Shown: piece after piece, positions 33,841 to 57,582 of the stretch
Layout of the letters: every line of letters begins with the position of its first letter
Position numbering within the stretch: position 1 is the first letter of the stretch
Source: Acidobacteriota bacterium
GTDB taxonomy: Bacteria > Acidobacteriota > Thermoanaerobaculia > UBA5066 > Gp7-AA6
NCBI GenBank assembly: GCA_039933215.1
Contig: JBDTOO010000004.1
Coordinates: 5,844-69,843, forward strand
DNA length: 64,000 nucleotides
Reading direction: 5' to 3'
Program-made: the position numbers and the translations under genes
The notes under the pieces: generated by a model
What the model was told of the DNA's origin: nothing
The model's database searches: none
The model's input: the letters and a program-made list of their open reading frames with translations, nothing else

Positions 33841-33862
33841 GGTTTCTCCGCCCCTTCGGGCA

Positions 33863-34459: not shown

Positions 34460-34582
34460 GGACCTATAGTACCGGGCGTGCGGCCGTCGGGTGGCGATCG
34501 AAGCGGACCAAACGGGAGCCCGGGGGCGCCGGAACCGGTTCTGGCCGGCGCGGCCGCCTCGCCCCGGCGCGTGCCGCCGTCG

Positions 34583-36182: not shown

Positions 36183-37550
<1,368 letters not shown>

Positions 37551-37640
37551 GGGAGGGTTCCCTACAGGGTACGGCGTCGGCGGGAGAACGCAAGGGCCGC
37601 CCTTTCGGACGGCCCTTCGGAACTCGAGCGGCGACGCGGC

Positions 37641-38564
37641 TTACTGGGGAGGCTTCGGCTGCAGGTCCGGGTTCGCCGCTCCCGGAATGTACCCGGACTT
37701 GCCGTCCGCGGGAGCGGTGGACGGGGCGGACCCGGCGGGCGCCGCGTAGAGGCTCCCCTGGCCGTACGGAGTCGGCCGAGGGGCCGGAGGGGAGCTCGCG
37801 GGCGCCGGAGCCGTGGCGGGAGCACCGGAGGCTCCGGCCGAAGCGGCGGCCGAGGCGGCGGCCGCCGCGGCGACGGCCGCGGGCGGAGCGGCTGCCGGCG
37901 GTGCGCTCCAGGTGGGCGTGAATCGGAAGTGGTTGATCGTCTTGTCGCCGACCGGGAGGGTGACGGTGAAATTGGCGGACTGGCCGCCTTCGATCGTGCC
38001 GCCGGCCATGATCGCGTTCGCGCTCGTGACGGCGTTTCCGGCTTCGTCGATCCCGCTCACCGTCATGCGGGTGCCGGTCACGGTCTCCGTGCCGGTATTC
38101 ACGACATTGCCCGTGAGAAGAAGGTTCGTCCCCGCTTTCTGCTGCTTGTAGTCCCCGACCTCGACGCGCGCGGGACCCGCCTTCGCTCCGTTGGTCTTGT
38201 CGACCTCGTCGACCGGGATCATCGAGGAATGTCCGACGTCCGCGTCGGTCACGCGGACCCTGGCCCTGGGCTCCCGGCCGGAGCGCACGGCGTCGGCGGG
38301 CGTCGAAGGCGGAGCGACGACGGCCGGGCGGGCCGCCACCGGCCCGCTCGACCGCGCGGCCGCGGTCGCCCGGGTGTCGATCTCGGTCACCGGCACCGAG
38401 AGGAGCGTCCCGTCGGCCCGGGTCAGGATGGCGTTGCTCCCCTGCTGGACCCACGGCTGCTTCAAGTCGATGCGCGAGCCTCCCCGCAGGACGACGACGT
38501 CCGAAGCGAGCGCGAGGCCGGCGGCCAGGAAGAGACCGGTTCCGACGGATCGAATGTGGCTCAT
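37641..38564 (-). CDS. secreted hypothetical protein with an Ala/Pro-rich C-terminus, last gene of the minor-pilin/pilY1 operon
   Basis: Signal peptide. ATGA overlap with the pilY1 stop. Confidence 0.5.
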
Positions 38565-41500
38565 TGCTGCTGCTCTTTCCAGTTCTGACGGTTCTGCTTG
38601 CCGTCGAGATTATCCGTATTCTCGTCCAGCTTGCCGGTGGTGTGCGAGTACGTCGTGTGACTCTTCTGATCCGAACCGATCGTGTTCGCGGCGCTGACGA
38701 CGCCCGTCCCCATGTCCGACCGGTAGTCGGCGTACGTCAGGGTCGGGGAGGTCGTCGGATCGTAGAGCGGCGCTCCGTTCCGGTAGAAGAACCGGTACTG
38801 GAAGGAGTTGCCGTCGGTCGCGCACGGATTGGACACCGGCGAGAACGTGAGGACGGAGAGGTATCCATTCACCGCGATGACCGAGGACGTGGCCTTCTCG
38901 TCCTGCGTCTCGAAGTCGAGGTAACCCCCGAGCGAGAAGTCCGGCGGATTGGCGACCGTCGGGTTGATCGAGGTCAGGTCGGTGTCGTGAAGGGTCGTGA
39001 CCGCGCCGTCGTCGATCATGAAGAACAGCCGGTTGACCGAGGGATTCGGCGTCTTCAGGAGGTCGGAGCGGTCCCCCGTGCCCCAGGCGACGCCGAGAGT
39101 CGGCCGCGCGCCGCCGTTCAAGTAGATGAGCGTCGGCTCGAGGAAGATCGGCTGGTTCGGCTGCGTCGTTGACGTCGAGGCGTCGAACCGGAGGATCGGC
39201 TGCCAGTTGGTGATCATGTTCGAGACGATGAGCCCCTTCTTCGGCGTCGACGCGGCGTCGGCGGTCAGGTCGAGGCGCCACATGCGGCCGTTCACGTCGC
39301 CCATGTAGACCACATCGAGATACCCGTCGTCGTCGTAGTCGGCGACGGCCGGCGGCGCCGGCATCGGAGCGAAGTCCGACGCGCCCGTCCCGCTGTCGTC
39401 ACCCGACGTCGCCTTGTAGATGATCTTGCCGGTCTCGATGTCGAGGACGTAGATCGCCCGGCCCTTGGTCGCGTTGACGCCGGACGTCACGATCGGGTCT
39501 CCCGGCTTGAACGAGGGATCGTTGCCGCCGCCGAAGATCGCGACGTAGCGGTCTTCGTAGGCCGCTCCGACGACCACCTTGATCCGGCCGATGACCGGAG
39601 TGGACCACGTCTCGCCCATCGCCGGCAGGCCCAGGCAGGTGCCGGGGCTGACCGCGCAGTCGTCCATGACCTCCCAGAGAACGTTGGGGTAGATGCTGGG
39701 GCAGGAACCGCCGCCGTTCAGGCAGTCGGGTACGGTGTGCTTGCCGGCCGTCTTCACGCCGTAGGTCGACGAAGCGACGACGGTGTCGACCCGGTCCGGC
39801 TGGGTCACGTCGAGCCCGAAGACGGCGTTGCCGCCCTGGCGCAGCGTACCGACCAGGACCGTCCGCCAGGCCCGGTTCCCGTTCACCGGGGCCCCCGAGT
39901 GGTTCGTGTCGATGAACACGTCGCCGAGCGAGACCGAGCCGTCCACGAGGTAGCGGGGCTGCGGCGGGAAATTCAGGAGCTTCGTCTCGGACTTCATGAC
40001 CGCGCGGGGCTGGTACGCGAAGATCTCGCGCCCCGTGCCGAGGTCGAACGTGCCGGAGAAGACTCCGGGGTCGCGGCCCCACACGCCCGCGTCGAAGGCG
40101 TGGAGGAATCCGTCGTTCGAGCCCACGAAGACCACCTTGCGGCGCTTCTCGTGGAAGGTCGCGAACGTCGGGTAGGCGTTCAGGCTGCCCGAAAGATACG
40201 GGTATTTATGCGGAGGCTCGAGCACGAGCGGCTCGGAGTGGAAGATGTCGCCGAGCTTGTGCCCGTAGCCAGGGATCCCCGCGCCCGCCGAGGGAGGAGC
40301 CGGATCGGTCGGAATCTGCGGCGCGACGCCGGGGGCCGGAATGTTGTCGCGGTAGTAGTACGAGTAGAAGTTCTGCTGTCCGGCGGCCGGTCCGATGGCG
40401 GCGCCGATCGGCTTGACGCCCGGCAGATTCAGGATCTCGTCCCGGTTTCCGTTCGTCGACATGCCGCCCCGGAGGAACGCCACGAGGCGCTGCGCCTTGA
40501 CGTCGTCCGTCCCCGGAGTCAGGCCCATGTTCGTCATGAGGGTGGTGAAGCAGCCGCCGGTGCAGGAGCCGGTGTTCGGCAGGAACTCCCTGCGCACGAG
40601 AGGCACCGTCGGCGCTGCGCCGTCGGACCAGATCATCTTCCGGCCCGGCCACACCTTCAGGGGGCCCGCGTTAGCGGCTGTGTACGGAGCGCTCGGAGCC
40701 GCTTCGTTCTCGGAGCCGTTGCCCGTCAGGGTCGCCACGGGGTCCGTGTAGCCGAGGACGCGAGCCGCGTTCCAGGCGGGGAACCTGAGATCCGGATTCG
40801 CGTTGTCCGGGTCGGTCTCGTCCGGGAACCCGCCGCGCACGGGGCCGGCCGGGGTGGGCGTCGGCGTGGGACCGCCCGCGGTCGGCACCGGCGCGATGCC
40901 GGCCACGAGCGGGATGAAGCCGATGGAGTCGAGCTTGTAAGCCTTGAGCGAGCCGCTCCAGATGGACCACTGCGACGCGACGTCGTTGCCGCTGGAGTCC
41001 TTGCTGTCGTGGCTGGGGATGACGGCTCCGAGGATGCCCGTTTCTCCGAAGCCCGTCGACACCGCGGGAACCGAAGGAGCCGCGATGACGTTCGAGGTGC
41101 GTCTGAAGTCGATGATCGTCTGAAGGGCCGCCAGGATGGCGGCGCGGTTGTCCGCCGGATAAACCAGGCCTCCGCTGTTGTCCGCGATGCACTTCAGGCG
41201 GGGATCCGCCGGGTTCGTGTTCATCGCGATGACGTTGACCGGCACGCCCTTGACCTTGATCGAGAGGTCCGCGGCGGCCGCGAGGGCGCGGGCTCCGGAC
41301 GGGGATTCCGGAAGCAGAAGCTCCCCGAGGTCGCCGGCCGGGCCCTTGCCGGTCGGTCCGCCGACGCACGGGTTGGAGAAGCACTCGTCGAGGCCGTCCG
41401 TCAGGAAGACGACGATGTACTTGCGGCAGTTGATGCTCGGATCGTCCGTCTGCGGGAAGACGCTGTTGACGAGGTAGTTGTAGACGTCGTGCAGTGATCC

Positions 41501-44086
41501 CGCGAGGGGCGTGCCGGGAGCGGTCACGACGACGTTCCGGGCGTCCTCGGCGAGGGAGTACTCGTCCATGTGGGGCTTCGTCGAGTCGTAGTTCACGATC
41601 GACGTCGAGAAGCGCAGCAGGCGCTTGATCGCCTGGACGCTGTCGCCGTCGGTCGTCTTGAAGGCGCCCCAGTCGCGGGAGAACGGAACGACCGGCCAGT
41701 CCGCGGGACTGGGCGCCTCAGTGCCGGGCTGGTAGGGCAGGTAGGCCGGGTTGCCCGGCGCGGAGTCCGAGAAGTGCGCAATGCCGCCGCAGTCCCCCCC
41801 GTACGGGTCGCACGGGTTCGCGAGCGGCGGGAACGGACACGAGACGCCTCCGGACGCGTCGTTCGGGAACTGCTGGTCGCGCTGCGGCCGGTCCTTGTTG
41901 TAGATCGCCGAGTAGGCGCCCTGGTTGTGGCGGTTCGCGATCGCATCGGGCAGCGTGTCGGCGTCGCCGTCGGCCGCGACCGAACCCCACGGCGGGTTGC
42001 CGTTCGTCACGTCCTGCGCCGTCGCCTGGTAGACCGGGGGCAGGTCGTACAGGTCGGCGCGCCGGTAGCTGACGCGGACGACCCGCACGGGGGGACCGGT
42101 CAACGCCGCCGGATCGGCCTGGGGGTCGTCGAATCCGCGGTACGCGCGGGGAAGCGGATCGCCGTCGGGCTCGCCGTCGCCGTCGAAGTCCACGAACGAG
42201 CAGGACTTCAGCGGATCGTACTGGCACGGCCCGCACAGAAGCGGCGGGTTCGGGGGGCTGTTGAAGAGCGACTGCGGCACGCCCGGGCACGGAACGCCGG
42301 GGGAGCTCGAGGACGGGGGGGGCGGAGGCGGAGCCATCGCCAGGAGGCCGCGCATCGCGGCGGACACCCAGCGTCCCGCCGCCGGGATCAGGCTCGCCGC
42401 GGGCATCTGTCCGCTGGGGAGCGTGATGACGGGCGTCGGAGTCCGCGTGCTCGAGGGCGTCCGCGTCGGCGTGAACGTCGGCGGCAGCGGCGTCAGCGTG
42501 AACGTCGCCGTCCGCGTCGGCGTCGCCGTCAGCGTGTTCGTCTGCGTCGGCGTGTTGCTCGGCGTGAAGGTTTTTGTGATGGTCGGCGTGTTGCTCGGCG
42601 TGAACGTCTGCGTGAACGTCCGCGTGACGGTCGGGGTGCTCGTCGACGTGAAGGTCGGCGTGATCGTGCGCGTGTTGCTCGGCGTGAACGTCGGCGTGAT
42701 CGTGGGCGTCAGCGTGATCGTCGGCGAGAGCGTGGGCGTCAGCGTCTGAGTCGCCGTCCGGGTCTGCGTCAGGGTGACGGACGGAGTCACCGTGGGACTC
42801 TGCGTTCCCGTGGCCGTCGCCGTGAACGTCGGCGTGATCGTCGGCGTGCTCGTCTTCGTGAACGTCGGCGTGATCGTCGGCGTGTTGGTCCTCGTCGACG
42901 TGCTGGTGAACGTCGGCGTGATCGTCGGCGTGCTCGTCGTCGTGAAGGTCGGCGTGATCGTCGGCGTCAGCGTGATCGTCGGCGTCTTCGTCGGCGTGCG
43001 CGTCTTCGTCGGCGTGCGCGTGTTCGTCCGTGTGCGTGTGTTCGTCGGGGTATTGGTCTCCGTTGCGGTGTTCGTGACGGTCGGCGTCGCCGTCGGCGAG
43101 GCCGTGGAGGTGTTGGTCGGAGTCGGGGTTATCGTGGGCGTGTTCGTGGAAGTCGGCGTCGGCGTGTTCGTGGCGGTGGCCGTCGGCGTCGGCGGAGGCG
43201 CCCACTCCTCGATCTCGACCACGAGGTTGGGATCCGAGTAGTTGCCCGAGACGACCTTCATCCGCAGCTCGTATCCGCGCCGCGTGGCGGACTGCGTGCG
43301 GTAGATCACCTCTCCCTGGTTCAGACCCTTGGGGCCGAACGCTCCGCGCCAGGTGCCCGGAGCGGGAGCGGGCGGGACGGGGACGCCGACGCCCGGCCCG
43401 TACGGCGGCCGGGTGTCCGCGACCTCGCCCGTGTCCTCGCGGTTGTAGCTGTGCATGACCTTGTGGCCGAACTGCAGGTACCGGCCCTGGGAGATGTCGG
43501 GGTAGTCCCAGACCCCCACGCCGCTGTTGGGGTTGAACACGGCGTCGACCGACCCGCCGGGGGAGACAGCCGACGTGACGTCGATCTTGTCTGCGAAGTA
43601 GAGGAACTCGACGCCGCCGTTGTTCAGCAGGTCGCCCTTGACCCTGGCGCCGTTGATCGGATCTCCGAACGCCGCCGTGTCCTCGGCGCCGAACGACTGG
43701 TTCGGGTTGCGGTAGTACGCGAAGGCCCAGTTGACGTTCTGGCTCGTCGAGAGCACCTCGCGGAGCACGCTCTTGGCGACACCGAGCTTCGACCCTTCCG
43801 TGGGCACACCCGTCGTGCCCTCCGGGTAGATGAAGTCGTCCATGTAAGCCGGCAGCTCGAAGGAGTCCGTGAACTCGCGGTTCATCGAGTGCGAAGAGTC
43901 CAGGATCACGATCACGTCCGCGTTGGCGCCGGGGTTCGTCTGAAGGAGCTGTCGATCCTCCGGGCGGGCCGGAGAGGCCATGACGAAGAGGAGGAGCATC
44001 GTCACGGCGGCGCGATGCCGCTGTGCGAAGGCTCTCAGACCGCTGCGATGCGATGACGGGTTGTTTTTCATGGCCTCAGCTCTCAA
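38561..44086 (-). CDS. pilY1: PilY1-like type IV pilus tip adhesin (1841 aa): N-terminal VWA domain, roughly 260-aa Thr/Pro-rich tandem-repeat region, C-terminal PilY1 beta-propeller
   Basis: VWA MIDAS motif [11 protein letters not shown]. [14 protein letters not shown] repeats at residues 295-555. C-terminal [15 protein letters not shown] Ca-binding loop typical of PilY1/PilC. ATGA overlap with pilX. Confidence 0.7.
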
Positions 44087-44670
44087 AAGGGCAGTTTCTC
44101 GGGATACGGACCGACCTCGATGTCGGCGACGAGCGCTTTGGAAGACTCCGGCACGAGGGGATTACCGGGCGTGTTGCCCCCCTCGGTCCGCACCTCGAAG
44201 CTCCACAGATACAGGGCGGTTTCCTTGTTGTTCTGGTTCATCGGACCGAGGGGCATGTACCGCCGCCCGACGAGGCTCGGCGTCTGCACGTGCACCTGCA
44301 GGCCCGTTTCGGACGCGTCACCCGTGAAAAACGAACCGGCCGCATGGACGTGGCTCGGCATCTGGAAGGTGAGGCGGCCGAAGGGCGTCGTGAACTCCGG
44401 GCGCTTCATCAACGGAATGGTCGGCGCGCGCATCTCCGCCGACGCCCAGCGGATGCCCGAGTCCGCGGCGTAGAAGGCGCGGTTCACGGACCACTCGTTG
44501 GCGGCGATGCGGGACTCCGTGCTCGTGACGAGCATCAGGGCGATGCCGATCACGGTCAGGATGGCGAGCACCAGGATCGCGATCACGAGCGCCGCGCCGC
44601 GCTCGCCGCGGCGGGCGCGGTACGCGGGTGACACTCTTCGGGGACGCGGCGATGTGGCGAAGGTCTTCAT
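44083..44670 (-). CDS. type IV pilus minor pilin PilX-like protein
   Basis: PilX N-terminal domain: [35 protein letters not shown]. Confidence 0.6.
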
Positions 44671-44683
44671 GGGTTTCCCGAGG

Positions 44684-46039
44684 TCAGTAGTTCCGGAGAT
44701 TGATCTTGATCGTCTGGATCCGGCGGCGGAAGTGCGGTTCCGTCGACAGGGTCGGGTACTGCGCGACGTCCGGGATCCCCGCCGTCACGGGCGTGTTCAT
44801 CACGACCATGCCGAGCGAGCCCTCCGCGCGATAGGTCGGGTCGGGGTCCTTCGACTTCGCGACGAGCGAGACCATGACGCCCTGGAGGCGCGGGCAGTGC
44901 GCGTTCGGGGTTCCGGGCACGAAGAAATCCGTCGCCACGTTCACGGTCTCCGTCGGCACGTTCGGGCGCCACTCGTCCTTGTTCGCCGCGGTCGAGAAGT
45001 TCTCGTCCGTATCCGTCGTGGCGTTGATCGACGCGGTGTCCCGGTCGATGCTGCCGTTGTCGTCGGCGTCCACGCCGTAGGCGATCTGCATGTCCTCGAC
45101 GTCGTCGGCGAGGCGCACGACGTCGAAATGGTCCCCGCGCCGCGTGGCCTGGGCGAGCGCCGGATGGAGGTGGTCCGTGTCGTCGATGAAATAGATGATG
45201 TCGTCCAGGATACCGGCGCGCCGGACGTTCTTGAGGCCTGCGGCGACCACCCCGGCGGCTCCGGGATCCTCGCCGTTGAAGCTCTGGGCGAGCGCGGTGC
45301 CGTACTTGACCGCGGCACCGAAGGTCCCCGTGCCGACGAGCGTCGTGGGATTGTCGAGCTGACCGACGCTGTACGAGTTCTGCATGATCCCGCAGGCCGG
45401 GTGGAGGTCGTCGTTGAAGGAAACCACGACGAGAAACGGGTTCACGCCCGTCGCCGACTGCGTGTAGAGATCGATGGCCGAGAACTGGGCACGGCCGTTG
45501 GCGGGATCGTCGTTGACGTGCTGCTTCGTGAGCACTCCCGTGATCGGCGCCGTCCAGAGGAGCATCGCGCTTCCGACGCACGCGGCCGGAGACGCTCCGA
45601 TCGCGCCCACACAGCCGTGCCCTTCGTCGAAGCCGACCAGGGGCGAATTGATCACCCCGCGGATCTCGATGATGTCGGTCCCGTCACGAACGGGAACGTC
45701 GACATCGGAAAGGTTCTTGATCTTGGTCGAGGAGACGTTGTCGTAGCTCGCCGAGCCCGAGTAGCCCGGCAGCCCGTTCGGCTGATGGTTCAGGACCGCC
45801 TGGGTGACGTAGACCCCGCCGGCGCCCGCGGCGCGGATCGTCCGGGTCATCTGGTAGATGCCGAAGCGCACGGAGCCCTGGGCGTCCGCGACGTCCTGCT
45901 CGCTCTTGTTGATGCGGGCGCTGGCGTCGAAGACCGCCAGGAGACCGAGCATCGCGATCGCGAGCAAGAACACGACGACCAGCATCTCGATCAGCGTGAA
46001 GCCGTGCTCCCGGGGGGAGAGGGTACGAACGGTCGTCAT
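44684..46039 (-). CDS. type IV pilus minor pilin PilW-like protein
   Basis: Prepilin motif HGFTLIEMLVVVFLLAIAML. ATG at 46039 gives an ATGA overlap with pilV. About 450 aa. Confidence 0.6.
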   Translation of the reverse strand: MTTVRTLSPREHGFTLIEMLVVVFLLAIAMLGLLAVFDASARINKSEQDVADAQGSVRFGIYQMTRTIRAAGAGGVYVTQAVLNHQPNGLPGYSGSASYDNVSSTKIKNLSDVDVPVRDGTDIIEIRGVINSPLVGFDEGHGCVGAIGASPAACVGSAMLLWTAPITGVLTKQHVNDDPANGRAQFSAIDLYTQSATGVNPFLVVVSFNDDLHPACGIMQNSYSVGQLDNPTTLVGTGTFGAAVKYGTALAQSFNGEDPGAAGVVAAGLKNVRRAGILDDIIYFIDDTDHLHPALAQATRRGDHFDVVRLADDVEDMQIAYGVDADDNGSIDRDTASINATTDTDENFSTAANKDEWRPNVPTETVNVATDFFVPGTPNAHCPRLQGVMVSLVAKSKDPDPTYRAEGSLGMVVMNTPVTAGIPDVAQYPTLSTEPHFRRRIQTIKINLRNY

Positions 46040-46674
46040 GGCGTGGGGGTCGCCGGCGGAGAGCAGGGAGGCGATCCGCACGGGTCGGATACGGAGACGT
46101 TCGTCGCGGGCGCCGGGTTATCGATGAACCCCGTGACCCGGGTCATCCGGGAGCCGATTCCGAGCGGTCCGCTGCTCACCTGGACAGTGACGTCAATGCG
46201 CTTGTACTGCACCGTCTGGTTCGCCGCCGTGACATGCACCGGGGTGAAGATCGTCGGATCCGGCGTCAGGGGCGCGGGAGTCGGCCCCCCGGGCGTCGGG
46301 ACCGCGTCGGGGGCCGGGACGGCGTACTGAGACACGTAATACGTAATCGAATAGGGATTCTGAACGCCGGGCGTCGCCGCCCCGGGGGGGACGCCGGTCT
46401 TGGGATCCGGAAGCTTCGGCGGCTGGTCGTTGCCGTGCGCACCCACGCTCAGACGCGCGTCGGTATAGCTCAGGTTCGAGAGCTGCTCGAGCTTGTCCCT
46501 CGCGAGCACGTTGACACTCGTGTACTCATTGGCCGAGTAGTTCGACTTCATGCTCGAGATGAAGAGCGGCGCGATCCCGAGAAGAACGAACGAGAGGAGC
46601 GCGAGAGAGATCAGGAGCTCGACCAGCGTCAGGCCCTTTTCCCCCCGGCGGCGGACGAGCGTCTTCACTGCCAC
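46036..46674 (-). CDS. type IV pilus minor pilin PilV-like protein
   Basis: Prepilin motif KGLTLVELLISLALLSFVLLGIAPL. Confidence 0.6.
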   Translation of the reverse strand: MAVKTLVRRRGEKGLTLVELLISLALLSFVLLGIAPLFISSMKSNYSANEYTSVNVLARDKLEQLSNLSYTDARLSVGAHGNDQPPKLPDPKTGVPPGAATPGVQNPYSITYYVSQYAVPAPDAVPTPGGPTPAPLTPDPTIFTPVHVTAANQTVQYKRIDVTVQVSSGPLGIGSRMTRVTGFIDNPAPATNVSVSDPCGSPPCSPPATPTP

Positions 46675-47216
46675 ACCACCGGCGTGATGACTTCCACCTT
46701 TCCGGAGGCGGAAGTGCGGATCGTGATCTGGTTCTTGTCACCGGCCGCGACGGGGCCCTCGATCTTGATGTCTGTCGAGAGCGGCGGGGGCGGCACGATG
46801 ACGCGGCCGTTGCCGTCGAAGGTGATCTTCCCGCCCGTCGGAAGCGTCAGGAACGCGAGCGACGCCTTGGGCAGGTTCAACTTGGTCTTCGGAAGCGGCG
46901 TCGGAGTTGGCGCCGGCGTATCCGCCTCGATCGTGTCGAGGAGATGGGTGCTCTGCGCCGCGGTCGCCGTCGTGACGTAGACGCTCGCGGGGAGGTTGCG
47001 CCGGACGGCGCGCATCCGGGCCGCGAGCAGCGTCGACTGGATCTCCGAGGCGGCGCTGCGGATCTGATTGCGGCGCGACATCTTCCCGAGATACGGGATC
47101 GCGATCGCGGTGAGGATTCCGACGAGGGTGAGCACGACGAGCATCTCCAGGAGGGTGAATCCTCGCTGGGACCGGTGGCGCAGATCGCCCGGGCGTTCGG
47201 TTTTCGAGCAAAGCAT
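46665..47216 (-). CDS. FimT/GspH-like minor pilin; start at ATG 47216 preferred over the ORF-track 47315
   Basis: Prepilin motif RGFTLLEMLVVLTLVGILTAIAIPY. The shorter start leaves a 200-bp divergent promoter region. Confidence 0.55.
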   Translation of the reverse strand: MLCSKTERPGDLRHRSQRGFTLLEMLVVLTLVGILTAIAIPYLGKMSRRNQIRSAASEIQSTLLAARMRAVRRNLPASVYVTTATAAQSTHLLDTIEADTPAPTPTPLPKTKLNLPKASLAFLTLPTGGKITFDGNGRVIVPPPPLSTDIKIEGPVAAGDKNQITIRTSASGKVEVITPVVWQ

Positions 47217-47309
47217 CGAGTGGTCCAAGAGCGATTCCCGTGCCCGGGTGGCCGCCGGGAGGCATCTCATTGAAAAACAATGGCTTAACTTCAGCCATGG
47301 CCGGGGGCC

Positions 47310-47325
47310 TGGCATCCTCAGTGCC
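47310..47325 (+). promoter_or_regulatory. candidate sigma-54 (-24/-12) promoter TGGCAT-N6-TGC upstream of the HEAT::pilT gene
   Basis: GG and GC elements are spaced exactly as in the TGGCAC-N5-TTGC consensus. One mismatch at the -14 position. Confidence 0.3.
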
Positions 47326-47342: not shown

Positions 47343-49907
47343 GTGACGCTCGGGGGCGGTCCGAGCGCGATCGCGTCGGGTCCCCGGATCGCTCGGGGGG
47401 GTTACACTTTCGCATTCATGTGGTCAAAAAAGCGACGCTCGCCTCCCCCCGAGGCGCGGGCGCTCCTGACCCGTGTCCGAGGGCACATCTGGAAGTCGGA
47501 CGGGGAGCGGGATGACCTGCTCCGCCGCATCTCCGCGGAGACCACGCTCGAAGCGGAAGACGTCGGCTGGATGGCGGCGAACGCCGACCCGTCGGTGCGC
47601 CAGTCCGGGATCGCGATCCTCCAGAAGTTTCCGTTCGAGGCCGCCTCCGCGGCCCTGTTCGAGTTTCTCGCGGGCCACGGCGACGCGGCCCGCCGGAACG
47701 TCTCCGCATCCCTGGAGCTCGTCGGCGGCGCCTCCTTCGGCTCGCACCTGCCGGCGCTTCTCGCGCACCCGGACCCCGGCGTCGGCTTGATCGCGCTCGA
47801 CTGGCTCCGGCGCAACCCGTCCGAGGCCGCGCTCGACGGGATCGTGCCCGCCCTGGCGTCGACGTCGGCGTCGCTGCGCCGGAAGGCGTTCGCGATCGTC
47901 GAGGCGACGCCGGGCAGGAAGAGTCTCGCCCTCGCGCGTGCCGCTCTCGACCACGATGACGAGGAGATCCGGTTCCGGGCGGTCGGCCTGGTCGCAAAAT
48001 ACCCCGACGAGGCGAACGTTCCGCCGCTTCTCCGCCGGTGCCATGCCGACTCGGCCCGAGTCCAGGACGCCGCGACCGCCGCGCTCGCGCCGCTTCTCGG
48101 GGCGCTCGCCGCGGGCAACGACTCCGACGCCCGCTTCCACGAGCACATCCTTCCCCTCCTGACGGACGTGAACCCGCGCGTGCGGCAGCTCGCGATGAAG
48201 ATCCTTGAGAGCCAGGATCCCGCCCGGGTCGCCGACTCCTTTTTGAAAGGATTCCGCGATACGTACGGCCCGGCCCGCGACCGCGCGATCGAAGGGCTCC
48301 ACGAGCTCGGCCCCGCGTTCATCCAGGCCTTTCTGGATCGCGACGACGACCCGGACCGGGGGGTCGCCGCGCTCGCGTCCTCGATCGCCGTGACGCTGCG
48401 CGGCCCGGACGTCGTCCCTCACTGCATGCGCTTTCTCGAAGGGACCGACTGGTGGCTTCGCGATCGGGCCGCACAGGCGCTCGCGGAGATCCGCGACGAG
48501 CGTGCGCTGCCCGCGCTCCTCCACATGCTGAACGACCCCGATTCCGACATCTCGGCCGCCGCCGCCCTCGGCGTCTGGGGCAGCCCGCAGGCGCTCCCGG
48601 GGCTCCTCGAGGCGTTCAAGAAGGGGACCAAGGACCTGCGGCTCGAGATCCTCGAGGCCTTCGCGAGAATCCCCGATCCGCGGGTCGACCCCCTCCTGGA
48701 GCAGATCGCGCGGATGGTCGCCGACCCGCTGATCCACGGCAAGGCGACGCGGATGCTCGCCGCCCGCGCCGGCGCCCCGATCGAGGAGACGCCGGAGCCC
48801 ACGTTCACGGAAATCGACTTCGCGGCCAAACCCTTTCCGTCGCTGCGCGACCTGCTCCACCACGCGCGCGCCGTCGGAGCCTCGGACCTCCACCTCTCGG
48901 CCGGAACGAAGCCGCACGTGCGCCGGCTCGGGCGCCTGGAGCCCCTCCCTCTCGCCGACACGACGGACGGGCAGATGCGCGAGTGGATGCCGCAGATCCT
49001 GGGAGAGCGCGCCGGCGAGCTCGAGGCGCTCCGTCAGGTCGACTTCTGCTACAAGGACCCGGACCTCGGGCGCTTCCGGACGAACGTCTTCTTCCAGCGC
49101 AAGGGCTTGAACGCCGTCTTCCGGCTCGTCCCGTTCGAGATCCCCACGCTCGCGGAGATCGGGATGCCGGAGAGCCTCTGGGAGATCAGCACGTTCAGCC
49201 AGGGGCTCGTCCTCGTCACCGGCGCCGCCGGCTGCGGGAAGACGACGACCCTCGCGGCGCTCGTCGACCGGATCAACGCGACGGAGCACTCCCACATCCT
49301 CACCATCGAAGACCCGATCGAGTACGTCCACGCCAACAAGGAGTCGCTGATCAACCAGCGGGAGATCCCCTCGCACTCGAAGTCCTTCGCCCGGGCGCTC
49401 CGGCAGTCCCTGCGGGAGGATCCCGACGTGATCCTCGTCGGCGAGATGCGCGACCTGGAGACGATCTCCCTCGCGATCACCGCGTCGGAGACGGGTCACC
49501 TCGTCCTGGGAACCCTCCATACGACGACGGCGTCCTCCACCGTCGACCGCATCATCAACGCGTTTCCCGCGGAACAGCAGAACCAGATCCGCATGATGAT
49601 CTCCGACTCCCTGAAGGCCGTCGTTTCGCAGACGCTGCTCCCCCGGCGGGACGGCGCCGGGCGGGTGGCGGCCTATGAGGTCCTCCGCAACACGCCGAAC
49701 GTGGCCGGGTTGATCCGCGACGGGAAGACGTTTCAGCTTCCGACCGCCATGCAGACCGGAAGCGCGTCCGGAATGGTCCTCATGGACACCGCTCTGATGG
49801 CGCTCGTGCAGGACGGCGTCATCGAGCCGCGGGCCGCGTACAACCGGGCGCAGCGCAAGGAAACCTTCGAGCCGATGCTCCAGGCCGACGAGGGAGCGAC
49901 GGCGTGA
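47343..49907 (+). CDS. fusion: N-terminal HEAT/PBS-lyase-like repeat domain (about 480 aa) plus C-terminal PilT/PilU-type twitching-motility ATPase; start 47343 (GTG) or 47418 (ATG)
   Basis: N-terminal repeated DPxVR ... ALxxLG HEAT-like units. C-terminal Walker A GAAGCGKTTT, Asp box and His box identical in layout to PilT. Confidence 0.7.
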   Translation: MTLGGGPSAIASGPRIARGGYTFAFMWSKKRRSPPPEARALLTRVRGHIWKSDGERDDLLRRISAETTLEAEDVGWMAANADPSVRQSGIAILQKFPFEAASAALFEFLAGHGDAARRNVSASLELVGGASFGSHLPALLAHPDPGVGLIALDWLRRNPSEAALDGIVPALASTSASLRRKAFAIVEATPGRKSLALARAALDHDDEEIRFRAVGLVAKYPDEANVPPLLRRCHADSARVQDAATAALAPLLGALAAGNDSDARFHEHILPLLTDVNPRVRQLAMKILESQDPARVADSFLKGFRDTYGPARDRAIEGLHELGPAFIQAFLDRDDDPDRGVAALASSIAVTLRGPDVVPHCMRFLEGTDWWLRDRAAQALAEIRDERALPALLHMLNDPDSDISAAAALGVWGSPQALPGLLEAFKKGTKDLRLEILEAFARIPDPRVDPLLEQIARMVADPLIHGKATRMLAARAGAPIEETPEPTFTEIDFAAKPFPSLRDLLHHARAVGASDLHLSAGTKPHVRRLGRLEPLPLADTTDGQMREWMPQILGERAGELEALRQVDFCYKDPDLGRFRTNVFFQRKGLNAVFRLVPFEIPTLAEIGMPESLWEISTFSQGLVLVTGAAGCGKTTTLAALVDRINATEHSHILTIEDPIEYVHANKESLINQREIPSHSKSFARALRQSLREDPDVILVGEMRDLETISLAITASETGHLVLGTLHTTTASSTVDRIINAFPAEQQNQIRMMISDSLKAVVSQTLLPRRDGAGRVAAYEVLRNTPNVAGLIRDGKTFQLPTAMQTGSASGMVLMDTALMALVQDGVIEPRAAYNRAQRKETFEPMLQADEGATA

Positions 49908-51067
49908 CGCCGGCGGCTGTGGCGGGCGGCACGGAGGTGCAGGCGTTCGGAGCGAACCGGGTGGACCGGTTCCTTTCGATCCTGCCGAAGCGCAACGGCT
50001 CGGACCTGCACCTCGCCGTCGGCGGTCCGCCGATGCTCCGGATCGACGGCCGGCTCGAGCGCATCCGCTTCCGAGCCCTGACCGAAGGGGATTTCTACAA
50101 CCTGATCGGGCCGATCACCCCGGCGCGGCTCTGGGAGGCGTTCACGCGCGACGGGGACGCGGATTTCGCCTACCAGATGGGCGAGGAGGCCCGCTTCCGC
50201 GTGAATCTCCTCCGGCAGGAGCGCGGGTCGGCGGCGGTCTTTCGCCTGATCCCGTCGCGGGTTCCCACCGTCTCCGATCTGCGCCTCCCGGATGCGATCG
50301 CGAATCTCTCCGACGGAACGCGGGGGCTCGTGCTCGTGACGGGGCCGACCGGCAGCGGAAAGACGACCACGCTCGCAGCGATCCTGGACCGGATCAACCA
50401 GCGCCAGCCGTACCACGTCGTCACGATCGAGGACCCGATCGAGTTCGTCCACATCAACCAGCGGTCGGTCTTCACGCAGCGCGAGATCGGGACCGACGTG
50501 CCGGGCTTCGCCGAAGGGGTCAAGGCGGCGATCCGCGAGGATCCCGACGCGCTCTTGATCGGCGAGATGCGGGACCTGGAGACGATGCGCATGGCCCTGT
50601 CGGCGGCCGAGACGGGGCTCCTCGTGTTCGCGACGCTCCACACCAATTCCGCGGCGAAGGCCATCGATCGGATCATCGACGCGTTTCCCGCCGCGGAGCA
50701 GGAGCAGATCCGCACCGTCCTCGCCGAGTCGCTGCGCGCCGTCGTGGCCCAGCAGCTGCTCGCGCGCGTGGGGGGCGGCCGGGCCGCGGCGTTCGAGATC
50801 CTGATCGGCTCCACGGCCCTCTCGAACGCGATCCGCGAGGGAAAGACCTCGCTCATCAACAATCAGATCCAGACCGGCAAGGCGAAGGGGATGATCGCGA
50901 TGGATCAGTCGCTCGGCGAGCTCATGCGCGCCGGCACGGTCTCCCCCGAGGACGCGCTCGAGCGCGCTCTCGATCGCGAGAGCTTCAAGAACGTGATTGC
51001 CGGCTGGATTCCCGATCCGAAGCCGGCGCCCCGCCCGGCGCCGTCGCGGCCGCCAGCCGCAAAGTGA
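49904..51067 (+). CDS. pilT: type IV pilus retraction ATPase PilT
   Basis: GPTGSGKTTT Walker A and a PilT-type AIRE[DE]PD motif. GTGA overlap with the upstream gene. The 3' low-complexity tail overlaps the convergent kinase gene by 83 nt. Confidence 0.85.
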   Translation: MTPAAVAGGTEVQAFGANRVDRFLSILPKRNGSDLHLAVGGPPMLRIDGRLERIRFRALTEGDFYNLIGPITPARLWEAFTRDGDADFAYQMGEEARFRVNLLRQERGSAAVFRLIPSRVPTVSDLRLPDAIANLSDGTRGLVLVTGPTGSGKTTTLAAILDRINQRQPYHVVTIEDPIEFVHINQRSVFTQREIGTDVPGFAEGVKAAIREDPDALLIGEMRDLETMRMALSAAETGLLVFATLHTNSAAKAIDRIIDAFPAAEQEQIRTVLAESLRAVVAQQLLARVGGGRAAAFEILIGSTALSNAIREGKTSLINNQIQTGKAKGMIAMDQSLGELMRAGTVSPEDALERALDRESFKNVIAGWIPDPKPAPRPAPSRPPAAK

Positions 51068-52787
51068 AGACGGCGCCCCCGCCGGGGCGCGCATCCACCT
51101 CCACCGTCCCGCCGTGCATCTGGGCGATCCGCACGACGATCGCCAGCCCGAAACCGACTCCGTCCGGCTTGCTCGAGTAGAACGGCAGGAAGATCTTCTC
51201 GCGCGCTTCCGCGTCCACGCCCGGTCCGCGGTCGGCGACGGCGATCGACACCTCGCCGTCCGCACCCCCTCCCGAGACCGCCACGGCGTCGCTCTCCGTC
51301 CGGCGCCCGGGAGGCGTCGCTTCCGTCGCGTTGCGGAGGAGATTGGCGACGGCGCGCCGCAGGAGGAGCGTCGACCCGGCCACCTCCGGGAAGTTCCCCG
51401 CGCGGCGGACGCGCAAGCCGGGAAATGCCGCCTCGATCTCCGCGGACGCCGCTTCGACGACCGCGGCCAGGTCGACGGGCTCCGGCACGAATCCGTCGGG
51501 TCGGGCGAAGAGAAGGAAGTCGCTCGTCACCCGGCTCATCTCCTGCGCCTCGTTCCGGATGGCCTTCAAATGGTCCCCCGCGCGATCGGGGTTGCGCAGC
51601 GCGAGATCCGCGTATCCATCGATCGCGGCCGCCGCGTTACGGAACTCGTGCGCCGCCCCCGCGGAAACTTCTCCGAGGTCCGCGAGATGACGCGCCCGCG
51701 CGATGTTCGCCTCGAGCCGTCGCACCTCGGTCAGGTCCGAGAAGAGCGCCAGGACGCCCAGGAATCGTCCATCCGCGCCGGCCGCCGGGGTCGCAGTGAC
51801 GCCGAGGACCCGTTCGGGATCGCCCCAGCGGACCTCGCGGCGGCCGACGGCTTCCCGTTCGTCCAGCACCGACCTCACGACGGCGCGCAGCTCCGGCACG
51901 TGCCGGAGCGTCTCCTCGAAGCCGGCACCCCGGACGTCCTGCGGGAGCCCGAGGATCTCCCGGCCCGCCTCGTTCAACTCCACCACCGCCCCCGAGCGGT
52001 CGACCGACAGGAGCCCCGTCGGAAGGTTCCGGGCGAGCGTCCGCGCGGCGATCTCCATGTCGTCGGCGCGCTCTTTCTCCGCGCGGGCGAGACGCTCGAG
52101 CTCGAGCTCCTTTTCGGAGAGCGCCGCGATGGTCGCCTCGAAGCGCGCGATGACGAAATCGCGTTCGTCGGCCGACGCCCGCGCGGGGTTGTTTCCCCGC
52201 GGCGCCGCGCCCGCCGTCGCGAGCAGCCGGTCGTACGGCGCGAGCAGCGAGCGCAGATAGAGCCACGCCAGAACCACCAGGATCGCGCCGGCGAGAGGGA
52301 CGAGAACCGTCAGGTTGCGGGCGTACGAGCGCAGCGCCGAGCCGGGCGCCGGGTCGAGAGCGACGAGGTAGAAGCCGGGCGGCCCGGCAGCGGACGCGAG
52401 CAGCAGAGGCGGCGAGCTCTTCCAGTCGCTCAGCACGCGGCCGGCGGCCGGGTGGTCCGCGGGCAGTTTCTCCGGCGCCTGCACCTCGTGCGTCACGGCG
52501 CGGACTCTCCGGCCGCCGCGGTCGTAGACGGCGACGTAGACGACGTCCGGCCCCAGCGCCGCCCGGTCCAGCATGTCGGTGGGATCGGACGACGGAAGCG
52601 CCAGGCGCCTCAGGATCTCCGCGGCGCGGAGCTCCGCCTGGCGGCTCCCCCACTCCGTCGCGTTGCGCAGGAAGAGGAGCGTCACGAAGTTCAGGAAGAG
52701 GATCAGAAGCAGCGCGACCGACAGGAAGAGCCGCGAGTCCCGCCGAAACGAGCGCGGAACCTCGTCCGGGAGGCGCGCGCCGGTCAC
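50985..52787 (-). CDS. membrane sensor histidine kinase (PilS-like position); GTG start overlapping the pilD stop (GTGA)
   Basis: Two TM segments. HisKA H-box SAGAAHEFRNA. HATPase_c with a GVGFGLAIV G-box. The ORF-track start overlapped pilD in another frame and was trimmed. Confidence 0.7.
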   Translation of the reverse strand: MTGARLPDEVPRSFRRDSRLFLSVALLLILFLNFVTLLFLRNATEWGSRQAELRAAEILRRLALPSSDPTDMLDRAALGPDVVYVAVYDRGGRRVRAVTHEVQAPEKLPADHPAAGRVLSDWKSSPPLLLASAAGPPGFYLVALDPAPGSALRSYARNLTVLVPLAGAILVVLAWLYLRSLLAPYDRLLATAGAAPRGNNPARASADERDFVIARFEATIAALSEKELELERLARAEKERADDMEIAARTLARNLPTGLLSVDRSGAVVELNEAGREILGLPQDVRGAGFEETLRHVPELRAVVRSVLDEREAVGRREVRWGDPERVLGVTATPAAGADGRFLGVLALFSDLTEVRRLEANIARARHLADLGEVSAGAAHEFRNAAAAIDGYADLALRNPDRAGDHLKAIRNEAQEMSRVTSDFLLFARPDGFVPEPVDLAAVVEAASAEIEAAFPGLRVRRAGNFPEVAGSTLLLRRAVANLLRNATEATPPGRRTESDAVAVSGGGADGEVSIAVADRGPGVDAEAREKIFLPFYSSKPDGVGFGLAIVVRIAQMHGGTVEVDARPGGGAVFTLRLAAATAPGGAPASDRESSRQSRS

Positions 52788-53587
52788 GATGCCGGCCACA
52801 GGGCGCGGTATCGCGCGACGAGCGGCTCCCCGAAGAAGAAGGCCGCCACCGCCCCGACGGCCAGGAAGACGCCGAACGGCAGGCGCAGCTTGCGGTCGCC
52901 GGCGCCGGTCACGATGAGAAGCACGCCCACGAGGCTCCCCGAGAGAGAGGCGAGCAGGATCGTGACGAGGACTCCCCAGGGACCGATGAAGGCGCCGATC
53001 ATCCCCAGCATCTTCACGTCCCCGAGTCCCATGCCCTCGTGCCCGGCGATGCGCTCGTAGAGAAACGCGACGAGGAAGAGCGATCCCGCACCGGCGGCGG
53101 CCCCGAGCACCGCCGCGAGCGGGGAGCGCGACGGTGAGAGAAAGGCGACCCCGATCCCGAACGCGATGCCGGTCAGCGTGATCTTGTCGGGGAGGATCTG
53201 GAACTCCGCGTCGATCGCGAGGAGCGCGAGGCAGGCGGAGACCAGGAACACCCCCGAGAGGATCTCCCCCCAGTCGCGCCCGCGCATCGCGACGAGAACC
53301 CAGAGGATCCCGTTCGAAAGCTCCAGCGCGGGGTAGCGGATCGCGATCGGCGCCCGGCAGGTCGCGCACTTGCCGCGCAGCGCGAGCCAGGAGATGACCG
53401 GCACGTTCTGGAGCGGCCGAATCGGCTCGCCGCAGGAGGGACAGTGCGAGCCGGGCGAAACGAGGGACTCGCCACGCGGCAGGCGGTGGACGAGCACGTT
53501 CAAGAACGAGCCGACGAGAAGACCCGCGACGCCCGCGAGCGCGAGGAGAAGCGGACCCCAGTCCGACCAGGGCCCGACGGGCGTCAC
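52784..53587 (-). CDS. pilD: prepilin peptidase (A24 family) PilD
   Basis: N-terminal Cys-box CPSCGEPI ... CATC. Polytopic C-terminus with catalytic Asp motifs (ILPDKITL; GLGDVKMLGMIGAF). GTG start, GTGA overlap. Confidence 0.8.
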   Translation of the reverse strand: MTPVGPWSDWGPLLLALAGVAGLLVGSFLNVLVHRLPRGESLVSPGSHCPSCGEPIRPLQNVPVISWLALRGKCATCRAPIAIRYPALELSNGILWVLVAMRGRDWGEILSGVFLVSACLALLAIDAEFQILPDKITLTGIAFGIGVAFLSPSRSPLAAVLGAAAGAGSLFLVAFLYERIAGHEGMGLGDVKMLGMIGAFIGPWGVLVTILLASLSGSLVGVLLIVTGAGDRKLRLPFGVFLAVGAVAAFFFGEPLVARYRALWPAS

Positions 53588-56332: not shown

Positions 56333-56827
56333 CTACTGCTGGGTGCCTTCGGGCCACTGCAGGAAGGCGCCGTCCGCATACGCGATGTCGTCGTTGAAGT
56401 CCGTCGTCGTGCCGCAGACGAGCGTCGTGTTGATGGTCTTGTTGCGTCCGCCCGACTGGATCCGATAGTTGTTGCCCGGCGTGTCGCTCGAGTAGTTCAT
56501 CGCCGCCGACCAGCCGTCGACCTTCGGGGGCTGCGCGATGTACGTCGGCGAGAGATTCGTGAACGACGCAGTGGCGAGCGCCACGTTCGAGCCGCCCGTG
56601 TACAAGCCCGCGGCGCAAGCGGCGGCCGGGTACTTGTTGTTGTCGACCGCGTAGGACTCGACCGCCGTCGCCAGCGCCCGCATGTCCGACATGGTCCGCT
56701 TCTGCTTGCCGCGCTGCACGGCGTTCAGAAGGTTGGGGATCGCAATCGCGGCCAGGATGCCGATGATCGCGATGACGATCAGAAGCTCGATCAGAGTGAA
56801 ACCCGACTCCGCTTTTCTTGGGGACAT
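56333..56827 (-). CDS. type IV pilin (PilA/GspG-like), copy 2
   Basis: SGFTLIELLIVIAIIGILAAIAIPNLL ... MSDMRALATAVESYAVDNNKYP. RBS AAGGA upstream. Confidence 0.75.
   Translation of the reverse strand: MSPRKAESGFTLIELLIVIAIIGILAAIAIPNLLNAVQRGKQKRTMSDMRALATAVESYAVDNNKYPAAACAAGLYTGGSNVALATASFTNLSPTYIAQPPKVDGWSAAMNYSSDTPGNNYRIQSGGRNKTINTTLVCGTTTDFNDDIAYADGAFLQWPEGTQQ
56336..56810. repeat. 475-bp direct repeat (copy A), near-identical to 56963..57437 (pilin gene duplication)
   Basis: The two stretches read identically base for base over most of pilin copies 2 and 3. Confidence 0.8.
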
Positions 56828-56918
56828 TTGGTCATCCTTTGGTCACGAAGGCCTGGACCGGGAGCCGCTTCGGCGATAGGAGCGGGACAGATTCCCGGCC
56901 GGAGAGTTCAAAAAAAAA

Positions 56919-56961: not shown

Positions 56962-57450
56962 TTACTGCTGGGTCCCTTCGGGCCACTGCAGGAAGGCGCC
57001 GTCCGCATACGCGATGTCGTCGTTGAAGTCCGTCGTCGTGCCGCAGACGAGCGTCGTGTTGATGGTCTTGTTGCGTCCGCCCGACTGGATCCGATAGTTG
57101 TTGCCCGGCGTGTCGCTCGAGTAGTTCATCGCCGCCGACCAGCCGTCGACCTTCGGGGGCTGCGCGATGTACGTCGGCGAGAGATTCGTGAACGACGCAG
57201 TGGCGAGCGCCACGTTCGAGCCGCCCGTGTACAAGCCCGCGGCGCAAGCGGCGGCCGGGTACTTGTTGTTGTCGACCGCGTAGGACTCGACCGCCGTCGC
57301 CAGCGCCCGCATGTCCGACATGGTCCGCTTCTGCTTGCCGCGCTGCACGGCGTTCAGAAGGTTGGGGATCGCAATCGCGGCCAGGATGCCGATGATCGCG
57401 ATGACGATCAGAAGCTCGATCAGAGTGAAACCGGATTCCCGTTTCTTCAT
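56962..57450 (-). CDS. type IV pilin (PilA/GspG-like), copy 3; likely the major pilin, with its own promoter and terminator
   Basis: MKKRESGFTLIELLIVIAIIGIL .... RBS GGGAGGGAAG. C-terminus identical to copy 2. Confidence 0.8.
   Translation of the reverse strand: MKKRESGFTLIELLIVIAIIGILAAIAIPNLLNAVQRGKQKRTMSDMRALATAVESYAVDNNKYPAAACAAGLYTGGSNVALATASFTNLSPTYIAQPPKVDGWSAAMNYSSDTPGNNYRIQSGGRNKTINTTLVCGTTTDFNDDIAYADGAFLQWPEGTQQ
56963..57437. repeat. 475-bp direct repeat (copy B) of 56336..56810
   Basis: See copy A. Confidence 0.8.
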
Positions 57451-57493
57451 CTTCCCTCCCTGTTTTCTATGCTGTTGAGTTCGCCCGGTATAG

Positions 57494-57509
57494 AGCAAGG
57501 GGGAAGCCA
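57494..57509 (-). promoter_or_regulatory. candidate sigma-54 promoter (TGGCTT-N5-TTGCT on the minus strand) about 45 nt upstream of pilin copy 3
   Basis: GG (-24) and GC (-12) elements with canonical spacing. Type IV pilin genes are classically RpoN/PilR-dependent. Confidence 0.4.
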
Positions 57510-57582
57510 GAGAGCGTGGCATTCAAGTCTTTCAAAATCAACGATTTGCGATCCAGGCCCCGAAGGCCCATGACGCGTTTTG

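Follow-up and report, generated by a model that had tools for sequence, protein, structure and literature searches.

A HEAT-repeat solenoid fused to a PilT-type ATPase in Acidobacteriota: candidate accessory scaffold of a two-ATPase pilus-retraction motor

A single gene in a 64,000-nucleotide stretch of genome from an Acidobacteriota bacterium of the class Thermoanaerobaculia (GenBank assembly GCA_039933215.1, contig JBDTOO010000004.1; hereafter the window, in whose positions all coordinates are given) joins a solenoid of HEAT repeats to a complete PilT-type ATPase. A second PilT paralogue follows directly and is translationally coupled to it. In Planctomycetota, a homologue of the whole HEAT part is encoded as a protein of its own, after a pilT-like and a pilU-like gene. 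Sequence comparison establishes the identity of these proteins, their conservation, coupling and gene context, the relationship between the split and fused forms, and the association of HEAT module and ATPase pair in two phyla. From the occurrence of the module both fused and as a separate gene we infer a role as a dedicated accessory subunit, and we lean modestly towards the view that it serves as a scaffold in a pilus-retraction motor with two ATPases, to one of which it is fused here.

The reading frame of the fusion runs from 47343 to 49907 on the forward strand with no internal stop, and its third-position GC of 0.90 is typical for real genes of a window with 65-75% GC. The original prediction had read it as an 854-residue product. 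The likely start is the ATG at 47418, giving a gene at 47418..49907 (+) that encodes 829 amino acids plus the stop. The NCBI protein P0001, annotated as a 'PilT/PilU family type 4a pilus ATPase' from an Acidobacteriota metagenome-assembled genome (MAG), has 829 residues and is 100% identical to the fusion; an alignment of 60 sequences shows M1 conserved in at least 90%, with a conserved W2 next to it. With this start, the earlier product was about 25 codons too long.

Is the fusion real, or did an assembly or sequencing error merge adjacent HEAT and PilT genes? The gene does occur in pieces in some relatives (L020, L033, L039-L041 and L049). These breaks, however, are frameshifts within the ATPase or the HEAT part and never fall at the domain boundary. 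Most of the fragmented copies lie on MFD-named MAG contigs, presumably from long-read assembly; that of L049 lies on a short contig from JGI. L049 was considered as a split form, a 525-residue HEAT protein followed by a separate PilT, and was rejected on finding a frameshift inside N2D, the N-terminal domain of the ATPase core.

The intact gene, in turn, is widespread. A full-length protein search returned more than 120 full-length orthologue clusters of about 825 residues, with 61-89% identity at 100% coverage; those that carry a name are from Thermoanaerobaculia. With the HEAT half alone as query, these proteins were recovered again, at 51-82% identity. Scanning a single genome for each species yielded 42 loci, about 40 of them with the fusion family, nearly all from Thermoanaerobaculia or Acidobacteriota MAGs and including a closed 3.84-Mb chromosome. 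The fusion is a single open reading frame of 808-833 amino acids in 27 species-level loci. An exhaustive HMMER search with the HEAT half added remote members of the same architecture (P0163, P0177, P0196, P0267 and P0289), 27-42% identical in the HEAT part. Three loci (L042-L044, from Planctomycetota and Pyrinomonadaceae) were rejected as family members: they match generic repeats only and have no PilT-type reading frame nearby. Given that the intact frame recurs in more than 120 protein clusters of independent origin and in 27 species-level loci, we assign an artefact practically no weight. The HEAT-PilT gene is real and conserved. The fusion of the original prediction thus stands, orthologous fusions do exist in other Acidobacteriota, and no stop or frameshift divides its HEAT and ATPase parts into two frames.

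The N-terminal part is a HEAT alpha-solenoid of 27 helices, about 13-14 hairpins (residues 11-451; 47448..48770, +). Pfam HEAT_2 matches it in three stretches (E 1e-30; 106.2 bits against a cutoff of 27.7), HEAT at 42.3 bits (cutoff 23.5) and HEAT_PBS at 21.2 (cutoff 20.9). Modelled alone with AlphaFold2, it forms 27 helices over residues 11-451, with a predicted local distance difference test score (pLDDT) of 88.6 and a predicted TM-score (pTM) of 0.70. Foldseek matches this model to PP2A PR65, alphaRep, AP2, karyopherins and CAND1, and the alphaRep designs in the Protein Data Bank are matched by the HEAT half at the sequence level as well. The repeat fold foreseen for this region, some 450 residues long, is therefore borne out. 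Its closest general likeness, in alpha-solenoid fold and repeat consensus, is to PP2A PR65 and to HEAT repeats of the PBS-lyase type (alphaRep designs; CpcE/F and NblB). The role of PR65 is that of a scaffold on which enzyme subunits are held together, and the likeness to it is one of fold. Functionally these scaffolds are unrelated to the fusion, and the bilin-lyase scores fall far under their cutoffs: the phycobiliprotein lyase and NblB equivalog profiles gave 32.6 bits against 300 (NblB), 27.7 against 330 (CpcE) and 19.8 against 220 (CpcF). The HEAT half evolves faster than the ATPase, with a mean pairwise identity among orthologues of 59% against 77%.

A linker of about 25 residues (452-475; 48771..48842, +) connects the two halves. 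It is the most variable segment of the protein: entropy over residues 451-480, at 1.94 bits, is the highest in the fusion. The linker is disordered, with pLDDT below 50 at residues 454-459 of the full-length AlphaFold2 model, and ends in a conserved motif, DF..NP.P[ST]L, which stands before the ATPase in 27 orthologues.

The ATPase itself (residues 476-817; 48843..49868, +) has a complete N2D and C-terminal domain (CTD). It scores 420.1 bits against NCBIfam TIGR01420 (pilT_fam; cutoff 319.1), matching profile positions 2-342 of 343 at residues 476-815, so that domain searches recover both halves of the fusion as first described. Residues 477-817 align with residues 4-344 of Pseudomonas aeruginosa PilT (3JVU) at 330 bits. 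The top Foldseek matches are PilT4 (6OJY/6OJX) and P. aeruginosa PilT (3JVV), with E about 1e-15, parts of the CTD having low pLDDT in the monomer model. The catalytic motifs claimed earlier, Walker A, Asp box and His box, are all found: Walker A GAAGCGKTTT (residues 602-611; 49221..49250, +), which reads G[PAS][AS]G[CS]GKTTT in 27 of 27 orthologues; the Asp box LTIEDPIEY (residues 628-636; 49299..49325, +); a Walker B region REDPDVILVGEMRD (residues 666-679; 49413..49454, +) with core DPDVILVGEMRD and the catalytic Glu; and a His box SETGHLVLGTLHTTTA (residues 690-705; 49485..49532, +) with core ETGHLVLGTLHT and both histidines. All four motifs, with the Walker A Lys, the Walker B Glu and the two His-box histidines, are kept in the same 27 orthologues, and the fused ATPase is predicted to be catalytically competent. 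Profiles of the PilB/GspE type scored far below their cutoffs (PilB 122.9 against 675.65; GspE 132.8 against 630.25), with no T2SSE_N match.

Three observations on this core deserve mention in their own right. The Walker A Cys (GxxGCGKT) is present in 26 of 27 fused orthologues, where PilT usually has Ser (GPTGSGKS). In the deepest fused lineages, the second His-box His is replaced by Asn (P0289, L046:3615-6116, GTING; P0267, L048:8167-10818, TTMNT), and in P0267 an Asp also replaces the catalytic Glu of Walker B (GDLRD). The fused ring of these two lineages may be catalytically impaired and mainly structural.

The gene directly downstream (49904..51067, +) encodes a 387-residue PilT paralogue that scores 428 bits against TIGR01420, has Walker A and B in canonical form and is 45% identical to the fusion's ATPase. 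It had been described as a standard pilT coupled in translation to the fusion, and the second half of that description is confirmed. The coupling signals occupy 49890..49907 (+): its GTG start (49904-49906) overlaps the TGA stop of the fusion (49905-49907) in the sequence GTGA, and a GAGGGAG resembling a Shine-Dalgarno (SD) sequence lies 7 nucleotides upstream (49890-49896). Of 31 loci, 30 have an NTGA overlap of stop and start; an element resembling an SD sequence lies 6-16 nucleotides upstream in 26 of 30 loci. No sigma-70-like promoter was found, nor any convincing terminator between the two genes. To judge by these signals, the partner is made from the same transcript as the fusion by coupled translation, and the two are co-expressed stoichiometrically. 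'Standard', on the other hand, it is not. The partner's His box (residues 235-250, ETGLLVFATLHT) has Leu in place of the first His, a substitution seen in 27 of 27 orthologues; in distant lineages (L045, L046, L048 and L050) the residue is Leu or Ile. At the AIRNLIRE position the partner reads ALSNAIRE, identical at 5 of 8 residues. In P. aeruginosa PilT, the H222A mutation at the equivalent His position causes less twitching, slower retraction and more detachment from the machine (PMC10187167).

Outside its core, the partner is extended at both termini by low-complexity stretches with many Pro, Ala and basic residues (49904-49966 and 50987-51064). The N-terminal one varies from 10 to 110 residues in orthologues (L005, L007 and L008 among them) and reaches about 275 in L046. 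Net charge and isoelectric point showed no consistent complementary pattern among HEAT module, ATPase and partner.

Two adjacent PilT-family ATPase genes, whose products presumably cooperate, recall the PilT-PilU tandems of Vibrio cholerae, P. aeruginosa and Acinetobacter baylyi and the PilU of Myxococcus xanthus. The original prediction saw a pair of this kind, with the fusion as the PilU-like member. By descent this fails. The fusion's ATPase scores 330 bits to P. aeruginosa PilT against 239 to its PilU (9N32), and the partner 346 against 218. A neighbour-joining tree puts the fused ATPases in a clade of their own (88% bootstrap) and the partners in a second (100%). Branching inside the two clades follows the same order; the matching orders indicate that fusion and partner have been inherited together as a pair. 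Both clades group with P. aeruginosa PilT and planctomycete PilT-like proteins (72% bootstrap), apart from the PilU-like planctomycete proteins. Scores and tree together make the two, by descent, a pair of PilT-type paralogues. The pair also differs from the tandems in that the appendage of the latter is a short C-terminal tail on PilU, where here it is a large solenoid at the N-terminus; a His-box substitution is fixed in the partner; and the decorated ATPase is encoded first.

The fusion belongs to the PilT/PilU family by every sequence criterion tested, but lacks two features of PilT proper. The first is the exact AIRNLIRE found in PilT of P. aeruginosa and Aquifex: at this position (49698..49721, +) the fusion has NVAGLIRD, identical at 3 of 8 residues, and its orthologues read [NA]V[AG]GLIR[DE]. 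The second is the bare core. PilT consists of about 345-400 residues, and the fusion of 829, with a 450-residue HEAT module and linker. Compared with PilT of known structure (P. aeruginosa 3JVU/3JVV; Aquifex 2EWV; Geobacter PilT4 6OJX), it shares the N2D-CTD core from end to end, the catalytic motifs and a type IVa pilus neighbourhood. It differs by 470 residues of HEAT solenoid and linker at the N-terminus, by Cys in Walker A, by NVAGLIRD for AIRNLIRE and by a constant second paralogue as partner. The PilT and PilU chains that it matches are 344-402 residues long and align from within their first 35 or so residues, leaving no room for an N-terminal domain.

PilU is marked by the lack of AIRNLIRE and by a C-terminal extension that binds PilT. 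In the fusion AIRNLIRE is degenerate, with LIR[DE] kept, and the protein ends in a conserved, acidic 12-residue tail (…AEEGG.A; 49869-49907). The tail overlaps the SD sequence of the next gene, and we set it aside as a PilU-like feature: the codons for EEGG (GAG/GAA/GGN) build the SD-like element in 26 of 30 loci, so that constraints on the protein and on the RNA are confounded.

Might the pair nonetheless divide labour as PilT and PilU do? In a model of the V. cholerae machine, PilT binds PilC through its AIRNLIRE face and PilU stacks on the N-domain side of PilT, the stacked hexamers being held by the PilU C-terminal tail bound to the PilT N-domain (Teipen et al., bioRxiv 10.1101/2025.10.30.685630). 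By analogy, the partner would contact PilC and the HEAT-PilT hexamer would sit beneath it as a PilT-dependent booster, its arms free in the cytoplasm. AIRNLIRE lies at the PilT-PilC interface in the AlphaFold3 model of Teipen et al. (bioRxiv 10.1101/2025.10.30.685630) and is more degenerate in the fusion (3/8) than in the partner (5/8); a bulky N-terminal domain would suit the distal position if the N-face of PilT points away from PilC; and the fusion's C-terminal tail is conserved. That conservation is confounded by the partner's SD sequence, however, and the fusion's ATPase is of the PilT type by scores and tree. The weakened His box (cf. H222A, PMC10187167) belongs to the partner rather than to the fusion. 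Furthermore, the fusion lacks the essential second His in L046 and L048, together with the Walker B Glu in L048, and an adaptor or bridging ring fits these changes better than a booster. We regard such a booster as unlikely.

The strongest pointer to the function of the HEAT module comes from another phylum. The exhaustive HMMER search found P0282, a protein of 486 residues that aligns end to end with the HEAT half of the fusion. Its family (P0282, P0329-P0344) consists of proteins of about 485 residues annotated as 'HEAT repeat domain-containing protein', the named members all from Planctomycetota. When the N-terminal half of the fusion was compared with this family by hhalign, the probability was 100% and E 4e-40 over 437 collinear columns (11-448 against 8-448). 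By this comparison the two are homologous over their full length, beyond the generic similarity of repeats. In four of four loci checked, the planctomycete gene is the third of a trio of pilT-like, pilU-like and HEAT genes; the flanking genes are unrelated and differ among the four loci. The PilT-like ATPase of the trio carries AVAN[LI]IRE. In its PilU-like ATPase there is no AIRNLIRE, the Walker B region reads 'RQAPKV' and the C-terminus is extended. In having a PilU-like member the trio resembles the PilT-PilU tandems, and it differs from the pair studied here, in which the HEAT module is part of a longer polypeptide and both ATPases are PilT-type paralogues. A metagenomic locus (L046:3615-13191) contains elements of both arrangements: four consecutive T2SSE-family ATPase genes (for a HEAT-PilT fusion, for its partner, whose long N-terminus is disordered, for a PilT-like protein of the planctomycete type and for an ATPase of 564 residues), then an unknown gene and then another HEAT paralogue that is free-standing.

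The occurrence of a module as a fusion in one lineage and as a neighbouring gene in another is a classic signature of proteins that act together. That the same module is encoded separately, directly after a planctomycete pilT-like/pilU-like pair, lends strong though indirect support to the suggestion that the HEAT domain is a scaffold or regulatory module built into the protein.

The terminal peptides of these proteins share a certain look. The planctomycete HEAT proteins (L047:5312-6772, L051-L053) end in a conserved 'LELEMENP.L', which by eye resembles the linker motif DF..NP.P[ST]L of the fusion, and their PilU-like neighbours end in 'RGE.TSD.G.LEM…'. These peptides may represent a shared short docking motif.

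The free-standing form also bears on whether the module acts within its own chain. N-terminal modules are known from extension and secretion ATPases: N1 of PilB/GspE binds PilM/GspL, the N-domain of MshE binds cyclic di-GMP, and Thermus PilF has GSPII domains. They share with the fusion the design of a docking or regulating module placed before an ATPase core of the secretion superfamily. Their folds, however, are others (T2SSE_N/GSPII, none detected in the fusion), and they belong to extension or secretion rather than PilT-type retraction ATPases. Following the regulatory examples such as MshEN, the HEAT domain could be an intramolecular regulator, either an autoinhibitory lid or a sensor of a small ligand such as cyclic di-GMP, gating the ATPase to which it is fused; the short linker and the conserved motif directly before the ATPase would suit this. 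But a module that also exists free-standing must be able to act in trans, Pfam and NCBIfam searches of the fusion matched no nucleotide-binding or PilZ/MshEN family, the structural matches of the HEAT part are scaffolds between proteins, and AlphaFold2 does not dock it confidently on the ATPase. We give such a regulator little credence.

How, then, might the HEAT module work as an accessory scaffold? The polypeptide consists of a solenoid of about 450 residues and a PilT-type ATPase, to whose N-terminus a short and variable linker tethers it; in our proposal, this covalent attachment would give each hexamer six solenoid arms on its N-domain face. The arms would serve as a protein-binding scaffold in the manner of PP2A PR65, positioning a partner at the motor. 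The best candidate for this partner is the hexamer of the second, co-translated ATPase, with a regulator or a component of the platform as the alternative. The arms could thereby control the assembly, coupling or engagement of the retraction motor. Their direction would depend on the orientation of the hexamer. N1 domains of extension ATPases act in the PilM/PilC region, and under an older orientation, with the AIRNLIRE face towards the cytoplasm (Adams 2019, PMC6762196), the solenoid arms would likewise lie near PilM and PilC. Under the geometry of Teipen et al. they would point away from the platform and either embrace the second ring or bind a cytoplasmic regulator. A broader reading is possible, and we offer it only tentatively: the HEAT module would be a hitherto unrecognised, dedicated third component of two-ATPase retraction motors in at least two phyla, coupling or gating the hexamers or tethering them to the machine or to a polarity or regulatory factor, as an alternative to the gammaproteobacterial mechanism of the PilU tail.

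Several points weigh against the scaffold proposal. The binding partner of the HEAT module is one that we infer, and because the membrane-facing side of the PilT hexamer is contested (Adams 2019 against Teipen et al.), the direction of the arms is uncertain. The full-length AlphaFold2 model, with a pTM of 0.48, gives no fixed orientation of HEAT part to ATPase. The best-conserved HEAT segment (residues 331-420) is also the one nearest to the generic PBS-HEAT repeat consensus, and its conservation may be structural rather than that of a binding site. Only four planctomycete loci and L046 were examined for the split arrangement, and the HEAT proteins of L042-L044, whose repeats match, are not adjacent to PilT genes. 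Within 8-10 kb of the planctomycete trios there are no pilin genes, and their link to pili rests on PilT/PilU homology. Lastly, if the genomes hold a third, fully canonical PilT, the pair would be an auxiliary system; the window contains no T2SSE-family ATPases other than the fusion and its partner.

By its gene content, the locus around the fusion is a type IVa pilus cluster. Upstream lies a divergent minor-pilin operon (38561..47315, -), identified by Pfam and found in the same synteny in L001, L002 and L050. It comprises a GspH/FimU-like gene (46665-47315), a PilV-like gene with an N_methyl pilin motif (46036-46674), PilW (44684-46081), PilX (44083-44670) and PilY1 (38561-44086), all on the reverse strand. 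Downstream and convergent is a PAS-HisKA-HATPase sensor kinase in a PilS-like position (50985..53369, -), a neighbour that is conserved in relatives, and farther along are two tandem T2SSG-type pilin genes with N-methylation motifs (Pfam N_methyl and T2SSG; 56333-56842 and 56962-57522, stop to stop, -). A sigma-54-dependent response regulator with Response_reg, Sigma54_activat and HTH_8 domains lies on the far side of the minor-pilin operon, in a PilR-like position (36183..37640, -). Relatives have the same gene order plus a prepilin peptidase (PilD).

This setting bears on a further possibility, that the pair has a role other than retraction, as a PilT-paralogue system for exopolysaccharide or biofilm regulation, DNA uptake or secretion, roles of a kind that have been suggested for some PilT paralogues elsewhere. 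Neither protein has a canonical AIRNLIRE. The adjacency of fusion and partner persists without pilin neighbours in the distant loci L045, L046 and L048, and the planctomycete trios lack such neighbours too; yet in well-studied species pilT and pilU also sit apart from pilin genes. Both the window and its close and moderately distant relatives nevertheless have the pair enclosed by the minor-pilin/PilY1 operon on one side and by the PilS-like kinase, PilD and pilin genes on the other. Many bacteria have several PilT paralogues of unclear role (PMC13584747, PMC5065972). On balance we think a role outside retraction improbable, slightly more so than an intramolecular regulator.

Other features of the neighbourhood are recorded here for completeness. 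The PilY1-family protein has 1841 residues, of which only 1278-1431 match the PilY1 propeller, the rest being mostly without a Pfam match; for its orthologue in L002 (1937 residues) no Pfam match is on record. The 3' ends of the partner gene and the PAS kinase gene overlap by 83 nucleotides (50985-51067); L002 has a similar overlap, L001 has none. The sequence TGGCTTCCCCCTTGC (57495-57509, -), close upstream of the first pilin gene, resembles a sigma-54 promoter (GG-N10-GC), and a sigma-54 activator is encoded at 36183-37640; across the window, matches to the sigma-54 consensus were not above chance (24 found, 30.6 expected). Between the kinase and pilin genes lies a gene for a YfhO-family membrane protein (53584-55785, -), as in L002, which may hint at pilin modification; L001 has a gene for a 1001-residue prepilin peptidase at this position. 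A gene for selenocysteine synthase (SelA; 33740-35902, +) lies near the pilus locus, and the organism therefore probably uses selenoproteins.

What does the fusion mean for pilus retraction? The usual description of a retraction ATPase is that of a bare PilT core. In databases the fusion goes under PilT/PilU-family ATPase or PilT and no more, and its free-standing homologues are labelled only as 'HEAT repeat' proteins. A literature search on PilT/PilU with HEAT repeats, on N-terminal extensions and on Thermoanaerobaculia pili returned nothing relevant and no description of a HEAT-PilT fusion or HEAT partner; both the fusion and the HEAT accessory part look undescribed. The identity and conservation of the fusion are solid by sequence comparison, the relationship between split and fused forms is a good lead, and the mechanism is a proposal.

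The recruitment of retraction ATPases, their exchange with the extension motor and the cooperation between two retraction motors are open questions that have just begun to be addressed, with PilT-PilU stacking through the PilU C-terminal tail as the example. A conserved solenoid that one phylum fuses to a PilT and another encodes next to a pilT-pilU pair offers a concrete candidate accessory or coupling subunit. Its fused and split forms are a natural experiment whose two outcomes can be compared directly. The fixed change of the first His in the partner, together with the loss of the second His in deep fused members, could reveal which ring provides power and which serves as an adaptor. Because Planctomycetota include cultured, genetically tractable species, the idea can be put to the test even though the Thermoanaerobaculia considered here are known only as MAGs.

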